NCBI RefSeq assembly: GCF_988243305.1
Contig: NZ_OZ547136.1
Reading direction: 5' to 3' (one strand)
Length of the DNA stretch: 64,000 bases
The position numbers and the translations under genes are program-made. This document shows positions 3,514-36,280 of this stretch, in pieces; the first letter of the stretch is position 1; the number at the start of each line of letters is the position of its first letter. The notes under the pieces are model-generated. The model saw nothing but the letters and a program-made list of their open reading frames with translations. It did no database searches and was not told where the DNA came from.

Positions 3514-6500
3514 ATGAAACGACATCTGAACACCAGCTACAGGCTGGTATGGAATCACATTACGGGCACCCTGGTGGTGGCCTCCGAACTGGCCCGCTCA
3601 CGGGGAAAACGCGCTGGTGTGGCGGTTGCGCTGTCTCTTGCTGCTGTCACATCAGTCCCGGCACTGGCTGCTGACAAGGTTGTACAGGCGGGAGAAACCG
3701 TGAACGACGGAACACTGACAAATCATGACAACCAGATTGTCCTCGGTACGGCCAACGGAATGACCATCAGTACCGGTCTGGAGTATGGGCCGGATAACGA
3801 GGCCAATACCGGCGGACAATGGATACAAAATGGCGGTATCGCCAACAACACTACTGTCACCGGTGGTGGTCTTCAGAGAGTGAATGCCGGAGGAAGCGTT
3901 TCAGACACGGTTATCAGTGCCGGAGGCGGACAGAGCCTTCAGGGGCAGGCAGTGAACACCACTCTGAACGGCGGTGAGCAGTGGGTACATGAAGGCGGGA
4001 TTGCAACGGGTACCGTCATTAATGAGAAGGGCTGGCAGGCCATCAAATCCGGCGCAGTGGCAACCGACACGGTTGTGAATACCGGCGCGGAAGGGGGACC
4101 GGATGCGGAAAATGGTGATACCGGGCAGACCGTCTACGGAGATGCCGTACGCACCACCATCAATAAAAATGGTCGTCAGATTGTGGCTGCTGAAGGAACG
4201 GCAAATACCACTGTGGTTTATGCCGGCGGCGACCAGACTGTACATGGTCACGCACTGGATACCACGCTGAATGGGGGGTACCAGTATGTGCACAACGGCG
4301 GTACGGCGTCTGGCACTGTTGTAAACAGTGACGGCTGGCAGATTGTCAAAAATGGGGGTGTGGCCGGGAATACCACCGTTAATCAGAAGGGCAGACTGCA
4401 GGTGGACGCCGGTGGTACAGCCACGAATGTCACCCTGAAGCAGGGCGGCGCACTGGTTACCAGTACGGCTGCAACCGTTACCGGCATAAACCGCCTGGGA
4501 GCATTCTCTGTTGTGGAGGGTAAAGCTGATAATGTCGTACTGGAAAATGGCGGACGCCTGGATGTGCTGACCGGACACACAGCCACTAATACCCGCGTGG
4601 ATGATGGCGGAACGCTGGATGTCCGCAACGGTGGCACCGCCACCACCGTATCCATGGGAAATGGCGGTGTACTGCTGGCCGATTCCGGTGCCGCTGTCAG
4701 TGGTACCCGGAGCGACGGAAAGGCATTCAGTATCGGAGGTGGTCAGGCGGATGCCCTGATGCTGGAAAAAGGCAGTTCATTCACGCTGAACGCCGGTGAT
4801 ACGGCCACGGATACCACGGTAAATGGCGGACTGTTCACCGCCAGGGGCGGCACACTGGCGGGCACCACCACGCTGAATAACGGCGCCATACTTACCCTTT
4901 CCGGGAAGACGGTGAACAACGATACCCTGACCATCCGTGAAGGCGATGCACTCCTGCAGGGAGGCTCTCTCACCGGTAACGGCAGCGTGGAAAAATCAGG
5001 AAGTGGCACACTCACTGTCAGCAACACCACACTCACCCAGAAAGCCGTCAACCTGAATGAAGGCACGCTGACGCTGAACGACAGTACCGTCACCACGGAT
5101 GTCATTGCTCAGCGCGGTACAGCCCTGAAGCTGACCGGCAGCACTGTGCTGAACGGTGCCATTGACCCCACGAATGTCACTCTCGCCTCTGGTGCCACCT
5201 GGAATATTCCCGATAACGCCACGGTGCAGTCGGTGGTGGATGACCTCAGCCATGCCGGACAGATTCATTTCACCTCCACCCGCACAGGGAAGTTCGTACC
5301 GGCAACCCTGAAAGTGAAAAACCTGAACGGACAGAATGGCACCATCAGCCTGCGTGTACGCCCGGATATGGCACAGAACAATGCTGACAGACTGGTCATT
5401 GACGGTGGCAGGGCAACCGGAAAAACCATCCTGAACCTGGTGAACGCCGGCAACAGTGCGTCGGGGCTGGCGACCAGCGGTAAGGGTATTCAGGTGGTGG
5501 AAGCCATTAACGGTGCCACCACGGAGGAAGGGGCCTTTATCCAGGGGAATAAGCTGCAGGCCGGTGCCTTTAACTACTCCCTCAACCGGGACAGTGATGA
5601 GAGCTGGTATCTGCGCAGTGAAAATGCTTATCGTGCAGAAGTCCCCCTGTATGCCTCCATGCTGACACAGGCAATGGACTATGACCGGATTCTGGCAGGC
5701 TCCCGCAGCCATCAGACCGGTGTAAGCGGTGAAAATAACAGCGTCCGTCTCAGCATTCAGGGCGGTCATCTCGGTCACGATAACAACGGCGGTATTGCCC
5801 GTGGAGCCACGCCGGAAAGCAGCGGCAGCTATGGCTTCGTCCGTCTGGAGGGTGACCTGCTCAGAACAGAGGTTGCCGGTATGTCTGTGACCGCGGGGGT
5901 ATATGGTGCTGCTGGCCATTCTTCCGTTGATGTTAAGGATGATGACGGCTCCCGTGCCGGCACGGTCCGGGATGATGCCGGCAGCCTGGGCGGATACCTG
6001 AATCTGATACACAACGCCTCCGGCCTGTGGGCTGACATTGTGGCCCAGGGAACCCGCCACAGCATGAAAGCCTCATCGGACAATAACGACTTCCGCGTCC
6101 GGGGCTGGGGCTGGCTGGGTTCGCTGGAAACCGGTCTGCCCTTCAGTATCACTGACAATCTGATGCTGGAGCCGCAACTGCAGTACACCTGGCAGGGACT
6201 CTCCCTGGATGACGGCCAGGATAACGCCAGTTATGTGAAGTTCGGGCATGGCAGTGCACAACATGTGCGTGCCGGCTTCCGTCTGGGCAGCCACCACGAT
6301 ATGAACTTTGGTAAAGGCACCTCATCCCGTGACACCCTGCGCGGCAGTGCCAAACACAGTGTGCGTGAACTGCCGGTGAACTGGTGGGTACAGCCTTCTG
6401 TTATCCGCACCTTCAGCTCCCGGGGGGGCATGAGCATGGGTACAGCCGCAGCCGGCAGTAACATGACGTTCTCACCGTCACAGAATGGTACGTCACTGGA

Positions 6501-14753: not shown

Positions 14754-15238
14754 CTAAACCATAGAGATGATTTTTATGATCCAGTCTTTCTCTTGTTGAG
14801 ATAGTTCCAGTTTGCTCACTCGTGTTAAGAAGGTATTGATCACCTGAACATCCGAATTGGTGAGCCTATTTAATAGAGCGGGTGGTATACCTTTACTAAC
14901 AATCGCTTTGCGGTGACTTTCGTAGTTTTTATTACTCATTGTTGATCCTAAAAAATCATTGTATGGCGGCATTGATCGTTTCCAGCAACCTTTACTTACT
15001 CACTTCGAACTGCATCCTCGTAGACTGTTCCACTACAATAATCGAAAAGGCGCGGATGTCCATTCAGGTATCCCGCTAATACGTATAGCAATAACAATGG
15101 CTTATGCGGCGCGCGCTGTTCACCCTTGTGCCAGATTTTTATATTGGCAATTGCCTGCTGTAGCGATTTACTGGAAGCTATTGATATCCCTGGCAGTGAA
15201 ATAATTGCGATCATGCTCGCAAATTTTCTGCTGTTCAA
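14754..15238 (-). pseudogene. possible disrupted gene (two adjacent short ORFs, 80 aa and 72 aa)
   Basis: ORFs 14996..15238 and 14754..14972 on the same strand in different frames separated by 23 bp; divergent from the HNH gene; no recognisable family. Confidence 0.25.
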
Positions 15239-28166: not shown

Positions 28167-29069
28167 ATGAAACGAGTTATTACCCTGTTTGCTGTACTGC
28201 TGATGGGCTGGTCGGTAAATGCCTGGTCATTCGCCTGTAAAACCGCCAATGGCACCGCTATCCCTATTGGCGGTGGCAGCGCCAATGTTTATGTAAACCT
28301 TGCGCCCGCCGTGAATGTGGGGCAAAACCTGGTCGTAGATCTTTCGACGCAAATCTTTTGCCATAACGATTACCCGGAAACCATTACAGACTATGTCACA
28401 CTGCAACGAGGCTCGGCTTACGGCGGCGTGTTATCTAATTTTTCCGGGACCGTAAAATATAGTGGCAGTAGCTATCCATTTCCGACCACCAGCGAAACGC
28501 CGCGCGTTGTTTATAATTCGAGAACGGATAAGCCGTGGCCGGTGGCGCTTTATTTGACGCCTGTGAGCAGTGCGGGCGGGGTGGCGATTAAAGCTGGCTC
28601 ATTAATTGCCGTGCTAATTTTGCGACAGACCAACAACTATAACAGCGATGATTTCCAGTTTGTGTGGAATATTTACGCCAATAATGATGTGGTGGTGCCT
28701 ACTGGCGGCTGTGATGTTTCTGCTCGTGATGTCACCGTTACTCTGCCGGACTACCCTGGTTCAGTGCCAATTCCTCTTACCGTTTATTGTGCGAAAAGCC
28801 AAAACCTGGGGTATTACCTCTCCGGCACAACCGCAGATGCGGGCAACTCGATTTTCACCAATACCGCGTCGTTTTCACCAGCGCAGGGCGTCGGCGTACA
28901 GTTGACGCGCAACGGTACGATTATTCCAGCGAATAACACGGTATCGTTAGGAGCAGTAGGGACTTCGGCGGTAAGTCTGGGATTAACGGCAAATTACGCA
29001 CGTACCGGAGGGCAGGTGACCGCAGGGAATGTGCAATCGATTATTGGCGTGACTTTTGTTTATCAATAA
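28167..29069 (+). CDS. fimH: mannose-specific fimbrial tip adhesin FimH
   Basis: ORF 28158..29069; MKRVITLFAVLLMGWSVNAWS signal peptide then FACKTANGTAIPIGGG; 300 aa. Confidence 0.95.
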   Translation: MKRVITLFAVLLMGWSVNAWSFACKTANGTAIPIGGGSANVYVNLAPAVNVGQNLVVDLSTQIFCHNDYPETITDYVTLQRGSAYGGVLSNFSGTVKYSGSSYPFPTTSETPRVVYNSRTDKPWPVALYLTPVSSAGGVAIKAGSLIAVLILRQTNNYNSDDFQFVWNIYANNDVVVPTGGCDVSARDVTVTLPDYPGSVPIPLTVYCAKSQNLGYYLSGTTADAGNSIFTNTASFSPAQGVGVQLTRNGTIIPANNTVSLGAVGTSAVSLGLTANYARTGGQVTAGNVQSIIGVTFVYQ

Positions 29070-29139
29070 AGAAATCACAGGGCATTGCTAATGCAGGTAC
29101 GCAATATTACCTGAAGCTAAAACCTGCACGTTAGCCCTT

Positions 29140-29177
29140 TGTAGGCCAGATAAGACGCGTCAGCGTCGCATCTGGCA
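29140..29177. repeat. REP-like palindromic element
   Basis: gtaggccagataagacgcgtcagcgtcgcatctggcat, typical REP composition between convergent fimH and gntP. Confidence 0.55.
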
Positions 29178-29209
29178 TAAACAAAGCGCACTTTACCGAC
29201 AATCCGAAC

Positions 29210-29243
29210 AGAGCCTGCCAATGGCAGGCTCTGGTGTTCTTTT
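29210..29243. terminator. hairpin terminator between convergent fimH and gntP
   Basis: gagcctgcc...ggcaggctc stem followed by tggtgttctttt. Confidence 0.5.
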
Positions 29244-30585
29244 ACGCTACCATGCTAATAATCAGCACAATAATCAGCCCAACCACGGAGTTGACCAGCT
29301 CCAGCAGACCCCAGGTTTTCAACGTGTCTTTTACTGACAGGTCAAAGTAACCTTTGAACAACCAGAAAGATGCATCGTTAATGTGGGTGAGGGTGTTGGA
29401 ACCCGCAGCCGTCGCCAGTACCAGCAGCGCCGGATTCACGCCAACCAGCTGACCAGTTGCTGGATCAAGGATTGCTGCACTGATAATCCCGGCAGCGGTC
29501 ATCGCCGAAACGACACCCTGACCCGTCGCCAGACGAATCAGTACGGTGATCAGCCATGCCATGATGTAGGGCGAGATATTGCCGTGGGACATCAACATGC
29601 CGATGGTGTCGCCAATGCCGGTGTCGATGATGGTCTGCTTCAGCACGCCACCCGCACCGATGATCAGAATCACCATTGCAATACTCTTCACCGCGCTTTC
29701 AAAAGCGTTCATCACCCACTGCATGTCATGACCACGCGCGGTACCAAAGAGTACGAATGCAACCACCATCGCAATAAACATCGCAATCGGCGAGGAACCA
29801 ATAAAGTTAACCACTTCCCAGGCAGGGGTATCTTTTACCAGCCAGATATTGGCGATGGTGGTGGAGATCATAATGATCGCTGGGATCAGCGGCACCAGAA
29901 TCGAAACGCCGAAAGAGGGCAGATTATTCATATCAACCGGTTGATCTGCTTTCAGGAATGATGGCGTTGGGCGCTCAAGATTGCCGAGGAACTTCGGCAG
30001 GATCAGACCTGCGCAGATGACACTTGGGATCGTCACCAGTACGCCATAGATATAAACCATCCCCATATCTGCGCCATAAGCATTCACCAGCGCCACCGGA
30101 CCCGGCTGCGGTGGGAACAGTGAATGTGCGGTAGTGGCAGCTGCTACTGCCGGGATCGCCAGTTTCAGGAACGGAATTTTAGCTTCGGCGGCAATAACAA
30201 TAACCAGCGGCGCTAACATGATAAAGGCCACTTCATAGAACATCGCCAGACCGAAAATCAGGCCGATGATAATCACCGACAGCTGTACATAGCGCAGACC
30301 GAGACGCGCCAGCAGCGTATGTGCTATCTGGTGAGCCGCGCCGGAGTCGACCATCAATTTACCGATGACCGCACCGAACACCACGATGATAGCCAGTTCC
30401 CCCAGCGTGTTGCCGAAGCCCGCTTTCATGGTGTGCAGCAGCGACATCAAATCCATGCCCGCCAGCATCCCGACGGACAGCGCCGCCACCAACAAAGCCA
30501 CCATTGAATTGATTTTGAACTTCAAATTCAGTACCAGCATCAGACCAATGCCGAATACCACCCAGAGAATGTTAAGCACATGCAT
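29242..30585 (-). CDS. gntP: gluconate/fructuronate transporter (GntP family)
   Basis: 447-aa polytopic membrane ORF; recognised GntP sequence. Confidence 0.9.
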
Positions 30586-30642
30586 AACGTTTTACCTTAC
30601 CTGGTTGAACCGTTGTTATTTTGGGCGACATGTTATGTAAAT

Positions 30643-30758
30643 TGGTCAACCATTGTTGCGATGAATGTCACATCCTCTGATCAATAACCATCGATTACCC
30701 TTTGCTGCAATTTGCAGCAACAACCAGGAGAGTGAAATTCTTGTGATGTGGTTAACCA
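30643..30758. promoter_or_regulatory. uxuA control region with two TGGT-N2-ACCA palindromes (candidate UxuR/ExuR operators)
   Basis: tggtcaacca at 30643-30652 and the perfect palindrome tggttaacca at 30749-30758, followed by ttgaca at 30774-30779. Confidence 0.45.
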
Positions 30759-30924
30759 ATTTTAGATTTCGGGTTGACATGTCTTACCAAAAGGTAGAAC
30801 TTATACGCCATCTCATCCGATGCAACGCCACGGCTGCGGTCTGGTTGTTCATCCGGATACCTAAACAACTCCGGGGCTCCACGTCTCTTTGCTGTGGAAC
30901 CCACTATGTGAAAGAGGAAAAATC

Positions 30925-32109
30925 ATGGAACAGACCTGGCGCTGGTACGGCCCAAACGATCCGGTTTCTTTAGCTGATGTCCGCCAGGCGGGCGCAACTG
31001 GCGTGGTTACCGCGCTGCACCATATCCCGAACGGCGAAGTATGGTCCGTAGAAGAGATCCTCAAACGCAAGGCGATCGTTGAAGACGCAGGCCTGGTATG
31101 GTCTGTCGTAGAAAGCGTGCCAATTCACGAAGATATCAAAACCCACACTGGCAACTACGAGCAGTGGATCGCTAACTATCAGCAGACTCTGCGCAACCTG
31201 GCGCAGTGCGGCATTCGCACCGTGTGCTACAACTTCATGCCGGTGCTCGACTGGACCCGTACTGACCTCGAATACGTGCTGCCAGACGGCTCCAAAGCTC
31301 TGCGCTTCGACCAGATCGAATTCGCTGCATTCGAAATGCATATCCTGAAACGTCCAGGCGCGGAAGCGGATTACACCGAAGAAGAAATTGCTCAGGCAGC
31401 TGAACGCTTCGCGACTATGAGCGACGAAGACAAAGCGCGTCTGACCCGTAACATCATTGCCGGTCTGCCGGGCGCGGAAGAAGGGTATACCCTCGACCAG
31501 TTCCGTAAGCACCTGGAGCTGTACAAAGATATCGACAAAGCCAAACTGCGCGAAAACTTCGCTGTCTTCCTGAAAGCGATTATTCCGGTTGCCGAAGAAG
31601 TCGGCGTGCGTATGGCTGTTCACCCGGACGATCCGCCGCGCCCGATCCTCGGCCTGCCGCGCATTGTTTCCACCATTGAAGATATGCAGTGGATGGTTGA
31701 TACCGTAAACAGCATGGCGAACGGTTTCACCATGTGCACCGGTTCCTACGGCGTGCGTGCTGACAACGATCTGGTTGATATGATCAAGCAGTTCGGTCCG
31801 CGTATTTACTTCACCCATCTGCGTTCCACCATGCGTGAAGATAACCCGAAAACCTTCCACGAAGCGGCGCACCTGCACGGCGACGTTGATATGTACGAAG
31901 TGGTGAAAGCGATTGTGGAAGAAGAACACCGTCGTAAAGCGGAAGGCAAAGAAGACCTGATCCCGATGCGTCCGGACCACGGTCACCAGATGCTGGACGA
32001 CCTGAAGAAGAAAACCAACCCAGGTTACTCCGCAATTGGTCGTCTGAAAGGCCTGGCCGAAGTTCGCGGTGTCGAACTGGCGATCCAGCGCGCTTTCTTT
32101 AGCCGTTAA
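30925..32109 (+). CDS. uxuA: mannonate dehydratase
   Basis: ORF 30889..32109; [35 protein letters not shown] from ATG 30925 with agagg RBS; 394 aa. Confidence 0.95.
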
Positions 32110-32189
32110 TATCCACCGGCATGGCTGCGCGCCGTGCCGGTTCCTTCTTCCTTGCCGTCACTCTCTGAAGACGGATTCTGGAGTTTACG

Positions 32190-33650
32190 ATGACTACTAT
32201 TGTTGACAGCAATCTGCCGGTTGCCCGCCCGTCATGGGATCATTCTCGTCTGGAATCACGCATTGTGCATCTCGGTTGCGGGGCGTTTCACCGCGCGCAC
32301 CAGGCGCTGTATACCCATCATCTGCTGGAAAGCACCGACAGCGACTGGGGTATCTGCGAAGTTAACCTGATGCCAGGTAACGACCGCGTGCTGATCGAAA
32401 ACCTGAAAAAACAGCAACTGCTGTACACCGTGGCGGAAAAAGGCGCAGAAAGCACCGAGCTGAAAATTATCGGTTCGATGAAAGAAGCGCTGCATCCGGA
32501 AATCGACGGCTGCGAAGGTATTCTCAACGCGATGGCGCGTCCGCAGACGGCGATTGTCTCCCTGACGGTCACAGAGAAAGGTTATTGTGCCGATGCGGCA
32601 AGCGGTCAGTTGGATCTCAATAACCCGCTGATCAAGCACGATCTGGAAAACCCGACTGCGCCGAAGTCCGCGATTGGTTACATCGTCGAAGCCTTGCGTC
32701 TGCGTCGTGAAAAAGGGCTGAAAGCGTTTACGGTGATGTCCTGCGACAACGTGCGTGAAAACGGTCATGTGGCGAAGGTCGCGGTTCTGGGGCTGGCTCA
32801 GGCGCGTGATCCACAGCTGGCGGCATGGATTGAAGAGAACGTCACCTTCCCGTGCACCATGGTTGACCGCATCGTTCCGGCGGCGACGGCAGAAACCTTA
32901 CAGGAAATTGCTGACCAGCTGGGTGTTTACGACCCATGCGCCATTGCCTGCGAACCGTTCCGTCAGTGGGTGATTGAAGATAACTTCGTTAATGGTCGTC
33001 CGGACTGGGATAAAGTGGGCGCACAGTTCGTTGCAGACGTTGTGCCGTTCGAAATGATGAAACTGCGTATGCTGAACGGCAGCCACTCTTTCCTGGCGTA
33101 CCTCGGTTACCTCGGCGGCTATGAAACCATTGCCGACACCATGACTAACCCGGATTATCGCAAAGCGGCCTTCGCCCTGATGATGCAGGAACAAGCGCCA
33201 ACGCTGTCGATGCCGGAAGGTACAGACCTGAACGCCTATGCGACGCTGCTGATCGAGCGTTTCAGTAACCCGTCTCTGCGTCACCGTACCTGGCAGATTG
33301 CGATGGACGGCAGCCAGAAGTTACCGCAGCGTCTGCTGGATCCGGTGCGTCTGCACCTGCAAAACGGCGGTAGCTGGCGTCACCTGGCGCTGGGCGTGGC
33401 TGGCTGGATGCGTTACACCCAGGGCGTGGATGAGCAGGGTAAAGCTATTGACGTGGTCGACCCGATGCTGGCGGAGTTCCAGAAGATCAACGCGCAGTAT
33501 CAGGGCGCAGACCGCGTGAAAGCGCTGCTGGGCCTGAGCGGTATCTTTGCCGATGATCTGCCGCAGAATGCCGACTTTGTTGGCGCGGTGACGGCGGCAT
33601 ATCAGCAGCTGTGCGAACGCGGTGCGCGCGAGTGTGTGGCTGCGCTGTAA
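32190..33650 (+). CDS. uxuB: D-mannonate oxidoreductase (fructuronate reductase)
   Basis: 486-aa ORF; N-terminal Rossmann motif HLGCGAFHRAHQA. Confidence 0.95.
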   Translation: MTTIVDSNLPVARPSWDHSRLESRIVHLGCGAFHRAHQALYTHHLLESTDSDWGICEVNLMPGNDRVLIENLKKQQLLYTVAEKGAESTELKIIGSMKEALHPEIDGCEGILNAMARPQTAIVSLTVTEKGYCADAASGQLDLNNPLIKHDLENPTAPKSAIGYIVEALRLRREKGLKAFTVMSCDNVRENGHVAKVAVLGLAQARDPQLAAWIEENVTFPCTMVDRIVPAATAETLQEIADQLGVYDPCAIACEPFRQWVIEDNFVNGRPDWDKVGAQFVADVVPFEMMKLRMLNGSHSFLAYLGYLGGYETIADTMTNPDYRKAAFALMMQEQAPTLSMPEGTDLNAYATLLIERFSNPSLRHRTWQIAMDGSQKLPQRLLDPVRLHLQNGGSWRHLALGVAGWMRYTQGVDEQGKAIDVVDPMLAEFQKINAQYQGADRVKALLGLSGIFADDLPQNADFVGAVTAAYQQLCERGARECVAAL

Positions 33651-33673
33651 CTAACTGATTACCCTACAGACTT

Positions 33674-33719
33674 ACTGGTCAATCAAACGCATATTTGGTT
33701 GACCAGTTTTCGTTTTTTT
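33674..33719 (+). terminator. uxuB rho-independent terminator (also contains a TGGT-N2-ACCA box)
   Basis: Stem actggtcaa (33674-33682) / ttgaccagt (33699-33707), then tttcgttttttt; tggttgacca at 33696-33705. Confidence 0.6.
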
Positions 33720-33801
33720 GCCCACCTGTACGTGCCAACTTCCAGTGCTAATGGTATAGTTTGAGATTAACGGGTGCCGTAAAATTGCCCGTTGTAGGCC
33801 G

Positions 33802-33838
33802 GATAAGGCATTCACGCCGCATCCGGCAAAATTTGATT
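33802..33838. repeat. REP-like palindromic element
   Basis: tgtaggccggataaggcattcacgccgcatccggcaa. Confidence 0.5.
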
Positions 33839-33863
33839 AACCGCACCTAACGGACACAACACC

Positions 33864-34637
33864 ATGAAATCTGCCACCTCTGCGCAAAGACCTTACCAGG
33901 AAGTCGGGGCGATGATCCGCGATCTGATCATAAAGACGCCGTACAATCCTGGCGAACGGCTGCCGCCGGAGCGTGAAATTGCAGAAATGCTTGATGTCAC
34001 GCGGACGGTGGTACGTGAAGCGCTGATCATGCTGGAGATCAAAGGGCTGGTGGAAGTGCGCCGGGGTGCCGGTATTTATGTTCTTGATAGCTCAGACAGC
34101 CAGAACACAGACAGTCCGGATGCCAACGTCTGCAATGATGCCGGTCCTTTTGAGCTGTTACAGGCGCGTCAGTTACTGGAAAGTAACATCGCGGAATTTG
34201 CCGCCCTGCAGGCTACCCGCGAAGATATCGTCAAAATGCGTCAGGCATTGCAACTGGAAGAGCGTGAGCTTGCTTCCAGCGCGCCGGGCAGCAGCGAAAG
34301 TGGTGACATGCAGTTCCATCTCGCCATTGCCGAAGCGACGCATAACAGCATGCTGGTGGAGCTATTCCGTCAGTCCTGGCAGTGGCGGGAAAACAATCCG
34401 ATGTGGATCCAGTTGCACAGCCATCTGGATGACAGCCTGTATCGCAAAGAGTGGTTGGGCGATCACAAACAGATCCTCGCCGCGTTAATCAAAAAAGATG
34501 CCCGTGCGGCGAAGCTGGCAATGTGGCAGCATCTGGAAAACGTTAAGCAACGTCTGCTGGAATTCTCGAACGTTGACGATATTTATTTTGACGGCTATCT
34601 GTTTGATTCATGGCCGTTGGATAAAGTCGACGCCTGA
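33864..34637 (+). CDS. uxuR: GntR-family transcriptional repressor UxuR
   Basis: 257-aa ORF; N-terminal winged-HTH (EREIAEMLDVTRTVVREAL) and FCD domain. Confidence 0.95.
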   Translation: MKSATSAQRPYQEVGAMIRDLIIKTPYNPGERLPPEREIAEMLDVTRTVVREALIMLEIKGLVEVRRGAGIYVLDSSDSQNTDSPDANVCNDAGPFELLQARQLLESNIAEFAALQATREDIVKMRQALQLEERELASSAPGSSESGDMQFHLAIAEATHNSMLVELFRQSWQWRENNPMWIQLHSHLDDSLYRKEWLGDHKQILAALIKKDARAAKLAMWQHLENVKQRLLEFSNVDDIYFDGYLFDSWPLDKVDA

Positions 34638-34777
34638 CTGATTATGATAAGCGCAAGGGTAAACGTTCCTTGCGCTTTCTTAAATTAAGAAGTCGCAATG
34701 AGTATTACTTTGTAAATTGCAGGGTATTGTTTAAATATCTGTATAACCTGAATGTTAGTACTCATTCTTCTCAGTAG

Positions 34778-35608
34778 TCATTTACCAATATAATTCCATT
34801 CACCATTTTTTAATTCAAACAGTTCTGGAAGAGATGACGGTTGCAGAGTCATGCGTTTGAGTGGCGCATCTTCATCACCGGGGATAACTTTATATCCCAT
34901 TTTTGCATGGATCTCCGCGGTACCTGGATAGGCTTCTATACCAATTATTGGGTCATTTCCCATTCCAATATTAGCATTAAGTAATGCGGCAAGGGCGAAT
35001 CCGGAAGAATTTGCTACCCCGGTTACCGTCATTATCTGATCAATATAGATATCAATTCTTGGCTGCTCATTGGTCCATCTTTTTGCCTGAGAAGCTGGAA
35101 GGGTTGAAATATATCCTATCGTGGTTCCGGCATAACCAGGAACATTGCAACCAGGGCCTAATGTTATTTCATGAACTGTATAGTCCTCAACAGGATCGAA
35201 AGGGCTCTTCATAAATAAATTTAGCCGTAAACCTTCTGCTAACTCTGTGGCAGCATGCGCCTTTTTACATATACCACCATATATTTCGTCTAAAGCTGAG
35301 GTGATTTTCAAGTTTCGATAGAGCATACGCCCTGTTGTTGTAATACCATTGAATTCGCTGCATGTTTCTGTTACATAATTAAATGGCCAGGACTGTTTGC
35401 CAATATTAAGTTTTCTAATTTCGACAACGCTTTTTCCATCGTAATTATGGTTATTGCCACGAGTAAGAGGCAGAAGATAGATATTTTCCGTATCCATGCG
35501 TGCATATTCATATCGACGTGTTAACTCATTGTCGACTTTTGGGTGATGAAGGAAGTGATTATTTGTATTGAATTGGTTATTAGCGGCATTGCTTAATGGC
35601 ATAGACAT
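34778..35608 (-). CDS. yjiC: uncharacterised protein YjiC
   Basis: 276-aa ORF in the K-12 yjiC position between uxuR and iraD. Confidence 0.7.
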   Translation of the reverse strand: MSMPLSNAANNQFNTNNHFLHHPKVDNELTRRYEYARMDTENIYLLPLTRGNNHNYDGKSVVEIRKLNIGKQSWPFNYVTETCSEFNGITTTGRMLYRNLKITSALDEIYGGICKKAHAATELAEGLRLNLFMKSPFDPVEDYTVHEITLGPGCNVPGYAGTTIGYISTLPASQAKRWTNEQPRIDIYIDQIMTVTGVANSSGFALAALLNANIGMGNDPIIGIEAYPGTAEIHAKMGYKVIPGDEDAPLKRMTLQPSSLPELFELKNGEWNYIGK

Positions 35609-36280
35609 AATAGTTACCTTTTATGAGTATTTCAATGATGTTTAGAAAAATAGATAAATTTTTCTGTAGTAAAAAGAGAAGTAAACAAATGACATGCATG
35701 TTTCTGTTGTAGTGATATCAACTCTACACGGTGATATTAAAGGGTGGGAAACACTATAAAGTATCAAAAAACGCTCATTTAAAATTATTTGCATGCAATT
35801 TAAAAGCATATCTTATTACTAATTGGAATTTGATGTTGCTATATTGATGTCTATATTAATAATGCCTGTGAATGGTATTTTTGATGTATTTGATATGTTA
35901 TCAATTTATATTATTTACAAACTAATTGTTTCAAATAATACATGGCTGATTATGCGAAGATAAATAATTGCTTTCCGGGATTATGTAGCGACGGTGACAA
36001 GTATTTTCATCTACGTAACTATTCGGAATATTCAGAATATACTAGCAGTTTTTTTTTGAGTTTGATGATTTTTATCAAATCATGACTTTTTTCCTGAAAA
36101 GTCAGTAGATATTCATAGGCAAGTAAGGTTTTATACTTTGCTGACAGGATTCAGGCCTGTCTCAGACTGACATGGATGTAATGAACAAAAGGGAATGGCT
36201 ATGGAAAATGAGCATCAATACAGTGGTGCCCGGTGTTCAGGGCAAGCCGCATATGTTGCTAAACGTCAGGAGTGCGCAAA

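Follow-up and report, generated by a model that had tools for sequence, protein, structure and literature searches.

The UxuR regulon of Escherichia coli has been under study since the 1980s. It includes gntP, uxuA, uxuB and uxuR, and autorepression has been described (PMC9369180, PMC10016265). The boxes recognized by the FadR subfamily of repressors are built from TKGT and ACMA half-sites, and in the sites given in PMC4494728 the gap between GT and AC is 3 nucleotides (nt) for most members, including ExuR, and 2 nt for UxuR. Placed in a synthetic promoter, aaattggtataccaattt brings about UxuR-dependent repression that is relieved by glucuronate; the consensus AAATTGGTATACCAATTT has served as a working UxuR operator in this biosensor, and the site used is credited there to the uxuR promoter (PMC8092373). 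Genomic SELEX (systematic evolution of ligands by exponential enrichment) with purified UxuR recovered one region only, gntP/uxuABR, containing two binding sites (PMC5934670). The paralogous repressor ExuR shares the TKGT/ACMA half-sites and an overlapping regulon with UxuR; the two proteins are reported to bind each other’s sites and to cross-regulate, and heterodimers have been described (PMC11806353, PMC9369180). Here we analyze a 64,000-nt stretch of E. coli DNA, hereafter the window (NCBI RefSeq assembly GCF_988243305.1, contig NZ_OZ547136.1), that carries gntP and the divergent genes uxuA, uxuB and uxuR, and in which three short palindromes of the form TGGT-N2-ACCA stand in the gntP/uxuA and uxuB/uxuR intergenic regions.

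Judged from their sequence and conservation, the three palindromes are the already described UxuR operators of gntP, uxuAB and uxuR. They occur at the same genes as the operators of E. coli K-12, with the same TGGT-N2-ACCA core and A/T flanks and with no difference in sequence. The less familiar point of the locus is that the third box is also part of an arm of the predicted intrinsic terminator of uxuAB, an overlap that is probably due to economy rather than to a dedicated device. We propose that UxuR, as a dimer of the GntR family and FadR subfamily, would bind one dimer per box on double-stranded DNA and would be released by fructuronate or glucuronate.

The three palindromes as UxuR operators

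An original prediction, made from the DNA letters alone, had noted TGGT-N2-ACCA palindromes beginning at positions 30643, 30749 and 33696 of the window and had assigned them one half-site pattern. All three are present as described, and they are the only exact matches to TGGTNNACCA in the window (Table 1). Boxes 1 and 3 are mutual reverse complements, and on the sense strands of gntP and uxuR, respectively, both read TGGTTGACCA. The number of exact matches is not significant alone (three against 1.06 expected, with at least three in 7 of 100 shuffles), and with one mismatch allowed the 26 matches in the window are background (23.6 expected). Scored against the published 18-mer AAATTGGTNNACCAATTT, box 1 reaches 14/16, the top score of the window, and boxes 2 and 3 reach 13/16, tied for second place with an unrelated site at 14854; the four sites scoring at least 13 compare with 0.37 expected. 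We build the case on placement and on comparative data. With respect to placement, all three boxes fall within the two non-coding intergenic regions, gntP/uxuA (339 nt) and uxuB/uxuR (213 nt), and the predicted arrangement of two boxes in the divergent control region and one in the uxuB terminator hairpin 5′ of uxuR is borne out.

The comparative set consists of 80 uxuR loci from Enterobacterales and Vibrionales (749 kb), in which the exact box occurs 195 times against 10.4 expected. Spacers of 0, 1, 3, 4 and 5 nt yield 2, 25, 14, 22 and 8 occurrences, and the 2-nt spacer alone is enriched. The flank profile of 169 sites from these loci is wwATTGGTyrACCAATww, and the commonest central dinucleotides, TA, CA and TG, are the same three that occur in the boxes of the window. 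Each of the three boxes combines inverted TGGT/ACCA half-sites separated by 2 nt, A/T-rich flanks (AAAT...ATTT) and a location in a hexuronate-gene control region with conservation in orthologous regions, as is characteristic of N2-type UxuR operators. A full-text literature search with the three 10-mers returned unrelated papers only. The TGGT-N2-ACCA pattern agrees with the published UxuR motif (PMC4494728), and it is this motif, together with the SELEX result and the enrichment across the 80 loci, that identifies the boxes as UxuR operators.

Table 1. Genes, boxes and other sequence features of the gntP/uxuABR locus (positions in the window).
Feature	Position	Strand	Sequence or description
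gntP	29242-30585	-	fructuronate transporter
uxuA	30925-32109	+	
uxuB	32190-33650	+	stop codon 33648-33650
uxuR	33864-34637	+	GntR/FadR-family repressor, 257 amino acids
UxuR box 1	30643-30652		TGGTCAACCA; on gntP sense strand TGGTTGACCA; exact match
Box 1, extended site	30639-30656		AAATTGGTCAACCATTGT
UxuR box 2	30749-30758		TGGTTAACCA; perfect 10-bp palindrome; extended site 30745-30762; exact match
UxuR box 3	33696-33705		TGGTTGACCA; putative uxuR operator and core of terminator 3′ arm; exact match
CRP-like site	30657-30672	-	TGTGACATTCATCGCA; gntP promoter region
Conserved TAACAT	30635-30630	-	downstream of gntP CRP-like site
uxuAB intrinsic terminator	33674-33719	+	stem, loop, T-rich tail
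Terminator stem, 5′ arm	33674-33687		ACTGGTCAATCAAA
Terminator stem, 3′ arm	33694-33707		TTTGGTTGACCAGT
Terminator loop and tail	33708-33719 (tail)		loop CGCATA, 6 nt; tail TTTCGTTTTTTT
Pseudo-box	33676-33685		TGGTCAATCA; one mismatch; in terminator 5′ arm
Predicted uxuR promoter	33732-33760	+	GTGCCA (33732-33737), 17 nt, TG-n-TATAGT (33752-33760); promoter scan

Box 3 within the predicted uxuAB terminator

Downstream of uxuB, the terminator and inverted-repeat scans both find a 14-bp inverted repeat that begins 23 nt past the stop codon and has an RNA fold of −19.7 kcal/mol (z = −4.5). It has in common with other intrinsic terminators a stable stem-loop that comes after a stop codon and leads directly into a U-run, with support from covariation. 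We aligned 18 hairpin sequences from Escherichia, Citrobacter and Klebsiella and find that 99.2% of the pair cells are standard, as against 17-50% with the partner slid, and that two pairs have changed on both sides in a compensatory manner. The pairing has been maintained across this three-genus sample and, together with the compensatory changes, indicates that the hairpin is selected as RNA. It differs from other intrinsic terminators in its A/T-rich stem (5/14 G-C pairs) and in having a 3′ arm that would be a protein-binding palindrome, box 3 making up positions 3-12 of that arm. The claim that the third box is embedded in the terminator hairpin is thereby upheld by the inverted repeat, by the fold and by the conserved pairing.

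The 3′ arm is better conserved than the 5′ arm. Within it, TTTGGTTGACC is invariant in all 18 sequences, and the last base of the box is its sole varying position (A, C or T), the change from A to C being paired with a compensating T-to-G change in the partner. The 5′-arm partners of TGG change from ATCA to ACTG in Klebsiella, each new base still pairing, while TGG itself stays fixed. Such asymmetry between the arms would be expected if protein binding placed an extra constraint on the 3′ arm. In Klebsiella the terminator T-run is short.

Since the box hardly differs from its reverse complement, the 5′ arm that pairs with it also resembles a box. The possibility that this pseudo-box, TGGTCAATCA, acts cooperatively as an additional operator at a distance of 20 bp from box 3 was considered and rejected, since the corresponding sequences in Citrobacter (GGGTCAATCA) and Klebsiella (GGGTCAACTG) track the pairing rather than the motif.

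Box 3 would have two roles in Escherichia, Citrobacter and Klebsiella, whose uxuR directly follows uxuB: on DNA it would be the autoregulatory operator of uxuR, about 49 nt 5′ of a conserved extended −10 element, and in the uxuAB transcript it would serve as the 3′ arm of the terminator, which the complementary upstream arm and the downstream T-run would complete. In the literature searched we found no discussion of an overlap between operator and terminator at site 3. We regard it as a small refinement on known operators and, from the comparison of sequences, as most likely incidental.

Age of the uxuR box relative to the hairpin

In 54 of the 80 loci, the 320 nt preceding uxuR contain a box that is exact or has a single mismatch, and 35 of these 54 do not have uxuB directly upstream. 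The loci that have the box and not the adjacent uxuB include those of Salmonella, with TGGTTGACCAGTTTCGCGTTTTTGG and a downstream T-rich stretch resembling that of Escherichia; of Photorhabdus, Morganella and Providencia, with TTTTGGTTGACCAAT 53-73 nt before the uxuR start codon; and of Photobacterium and Vibrio, with AGGTTGACCAAT. Of the 19 box-bearing loci in which uxuB does lie directly upstream, 17 have a 5′ arm that pairs with 9 or 10 of the 10 bases of the box; in L021 and L022, the remaining two, the box is largely unpaired and is preceded by a small GC hairpin separate from it. The median fold energy is −19.8 kcal/mol in the 19 loci with uxuB upstream and −8.1 kcal/mol in the 35 loci without it. 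Since the box is widespread without uxuB or a strong hairpin, it would be an ancestral operator that was later recruited as a terminator arm. The simplest reading of these comparisons is that an ancestral autoregulatory operator, being palindromic, was reused in a hairpin in one lineage.

In two of the Salmonella loci (L013 and L017) a further exact box, TTATTGGTAAACCAATAA, precedes uxuR by about 229 nt and may serve a neighbouring, oppositely read gene.

Several points weigh against the reading of box 3 as an operator that also terminates uxuAB. The box is TGGTTGACCC, with one mismatch, in Citrobacter and Klebsiella, and the hairpin comparison spans three genera only. In Escherichia sp. E1V33 (4295-4362) box 3 is TGGTTGACCT, ending in ACCT, with a mismatch in the hairpin and a degraded T-run, TTTTCGTTTATACTG; operator and terminator may both be weakened in this lineage. 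Finally, box 3 is centred about 67 nt before the predicted start of uxuR transcription, an unusual spot for simple occlusion of the promoter.

The uxuR promoter and alternatives to an incidental overlap

The predicted uxuR promoter has an extended −10 element, ATGsTATAGT, that shows hardly any variation among Escherichia, Citrobacter, Klebsiella, Salmonella, Atlantibacter and Cedecea. In the window the end of box 3 is 49 nt from this element, and the terminator T-run would lie 47-60 nt upstream of the predicted start, in the place of an UP element. Farther downstream, past the predicted promoter and ahead of the start codon, the uxuR leader holds an element at 33797-33841 resembling repetitive extragenic palindromic (REP) sequences (inverted repeat 33798-33827; sub-threshold match to naRNA4, 33.8 bits), and several other Escherichia genomes have about 56 nt extra at this spot.

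Repressor roadblocks within transcription units are well known from LacI at O2, from PurR in purB and from CcpA and CodY, and the uxu locus resembles these systems in that a repressor site stands in the path of elongating polymerase. It differs from them in that its repressor site falls within a terminator, where the transcription unit ends, and no roadblock effect is required there. The overlap at site 3 could be a working device, in which bound UxuR blocks polymerases arriving from uxuAB before the hairpin forms or gates a T-rich, UP-like element of the uxuR promoter; a device of this kind would tie both read-through and initiation at uxuR to the level of inducer. The position of box 3 within the 3′ arm is consistent with such a device, as are the position of the T-run and the distance from the box to the −10 element, which is held at 48-50 nt in Escherichia, Salmonella (48 nt) and Klebsiella (49-50 nt) and is off by 20 nt, or two helical turns, in Citrobacter (29 nt; in Cedecea it is 7 nt). 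In synthetic promoters, moreover, some repressors are effective from sites 49-59 nt ahead of the start (PMC11806353). However, Salmonella has the same box, T-rich stretch and spacing without uxuB upstream or a complementary arm, which argues that the promoter architecture is independent of the terminator, and terminator and box are separate in L021 and L022. The UxuR-bound state also represses uxuAB, so that few polymerases would arrive to be blocked. We therefore consider a working device unlikely. It is likewise improbable, and to a slightly greater degree, that the overlap was selected for itself, with UxuR on the 3′ arm controlling the amount of transcription that passes from uxuAB into uxuR and the T-run doubling as a promoter element masked by the repressor; if this were true, one 46-nt segment would be terminator, operator and promoter element at once.

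A second alternative concerns the protein rather than the site. The boxes could be mainly ExuR operators, or be used equally by ExuR homodimers, given that ExuR is reported to repress uxuAB and uxuR and to have a motif in common with UxuR (PMC9369180, PMC11806353) and that some of the Pectobacterium and Edwardsiella ExuR sites listed in PMC4494728 have the N2 form, TTGGTTTACCAA or TTGGTTGACCAA. The five E. coli ExuR sites in the same list are, however, all 3-nt spaced and lie at uxaB, uxaCA, exuT, exuR and one position with no gene assigned, and not at the uxu locus. The three boxes with their N2 spacing do not conform to the ExuR-type pattern TKGT-N3-ACMA, which shows no enrichment in the window and has no exact match in the uxu region; the enrichment near uxuR genes is limited to the 2-nt spacer, and UxuR alone selects gntP/uxuABR in SELEX. 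We consider it very unlikely that these are ExuR sites in the main or are used equally by ExuR homodimers. The boxes had originally been labelled candidate UxuR/ExuR operators; the UxuR part of this label stands on spacing, SELEX and comparative data, and the ExuR part has to be qualified, as the E. coli ExuR sites listed in PMC4494728 are of the N3 type and elsewhere, with cross-binding between the two proteins reported.

That site 3 is a terminator stem only, with a coincidental box and UxuR autoregulation exerted elsewhere, would fit the chance expectation of about one exact 10-mer match per 64 kb, the large distance from the predicted promoter and the joint change of the last box base and its pairing partner in Citrobacter and Klebsiella, but it is highly improbable when TGGTTGACCA with the same flanks is found 5′ of uxuR in Salmonella, Photorhabdus, Morganella, Providencia and Vibrionaceae with no strong hairpin, when the 3′ arm is the better conserved, when SELEX gives two UxuR sites in gntP/uxuABR (PMC5934670) and when the operator of PMC8092373 is credited to the uxuR promoter.

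Control regions of gntP and uxuAB

When the divergent region is aligned across Escherichia, Citrobacter and Klebsiella, conservation is concentrated in sharp islands, of which boxes 1 and 2 form part. Box 1, at which ATTGGTyAACC is kept in the three genera, lies 58 nt upstream of the gntP ATG and is flanked by a conserved CRP-like site and a conserved TAACAT. The CRP-like site, TGTGACATTCATCGCA, is the sole match to TGTGA-N6-TCRCA in the window and is likewise conserved in the three genera. This arrangement, together with the TAACAT, would fit a gntP promoter that depends on CRP and has box 1 within its spacer. Since box 1 would lie within the gntP core promoter, between the CRP-like site and the putative −10 element, a bound UxuR dimer should exclude RNA polymerase.

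On the uxuA side, GGTTAACCAAT at box 2 is conserved across the same genera about 20 nt upstream of an invariant TTGACA (30774-30779). Box 2 overlaps the weak right half (TAACC, 30753-30757) of a CRP-like site whose first bases are TGTGA (30742-30746) and whose centre falls about 60 nt before the point where transcription is predicted to start. Because of this overlap, UxuR on box 2, just 5′ of the uxuAB −35 element, would probably repress through interference with activation.

The divergent region also holds two conserved boxes with a 3-nt spacer, each one mismatch off the ExuR-type TKGT-N3-ACMA: TGGTTGAACCG at 30602-30612 in the gntP leader, and aTGTCTTACCA at 30779-30789, between the uxuA TTGACA and the presumed −10 element, whose Klebsiella version, TGCTTGACCA, is a near N2 box. 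They may be ExuR sites or secondary UxuR sites.

Gene context and further observations

The order gntP / uxuA-uxuB-uxuR in the window is that of E. coli, and the earlier assignments of all four genes proved correct on gene identification and on comparison with K-12. Both control regions are about 99% identical to those of K-12 MG1655, where the three boxes are unchanged and, by offset, correspond to 4,551,354-363, 4,551,460-469 and 4,554,407-416. The uxuB-uxuR segment is found in 5,396 of 5,426 complete E. coli genomes, with at least 95% identity in all except one.

A GC-rich 11-bp hairpin without a T-run (32115-32141) in the gap between uxuA and uxuB may be an intercistronic RNA structure; it is overlapped on the minus strand by a weak, false-looking match to a DnaX frameshift element. 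In the uxuA leader, about 80 nt (~30826-30905) are present in the Escherichia sequences and missing from most of the aligned Citrobacter sequences, and the fold of this leader is not more stable than its shuffles (z −1.2). An Rfam scan of 29000-36000 gave no match over threshold and, below it, the single REP-like match.

Significance

The three boxes are of little importance beyond annotation, because the E. coli UxuR regulon has long been studied and the sites fit it. As modest by-products, the analysis cleanly confirms, by comparison of loci, the specificity of the box with the 2-nt spacer for UxuR and indicates that the autoregulatory operator of uxuR is old and widespread. In Escherichia, Citrobacter and Klebsiella, the bases of box 3 would be under a joint constraint of protein binding and RNA pairing, a compact example of overlapping signals, and the locus may be used for testing how a repressor acts when its site is about 67 nt 5′ of the transcription start.

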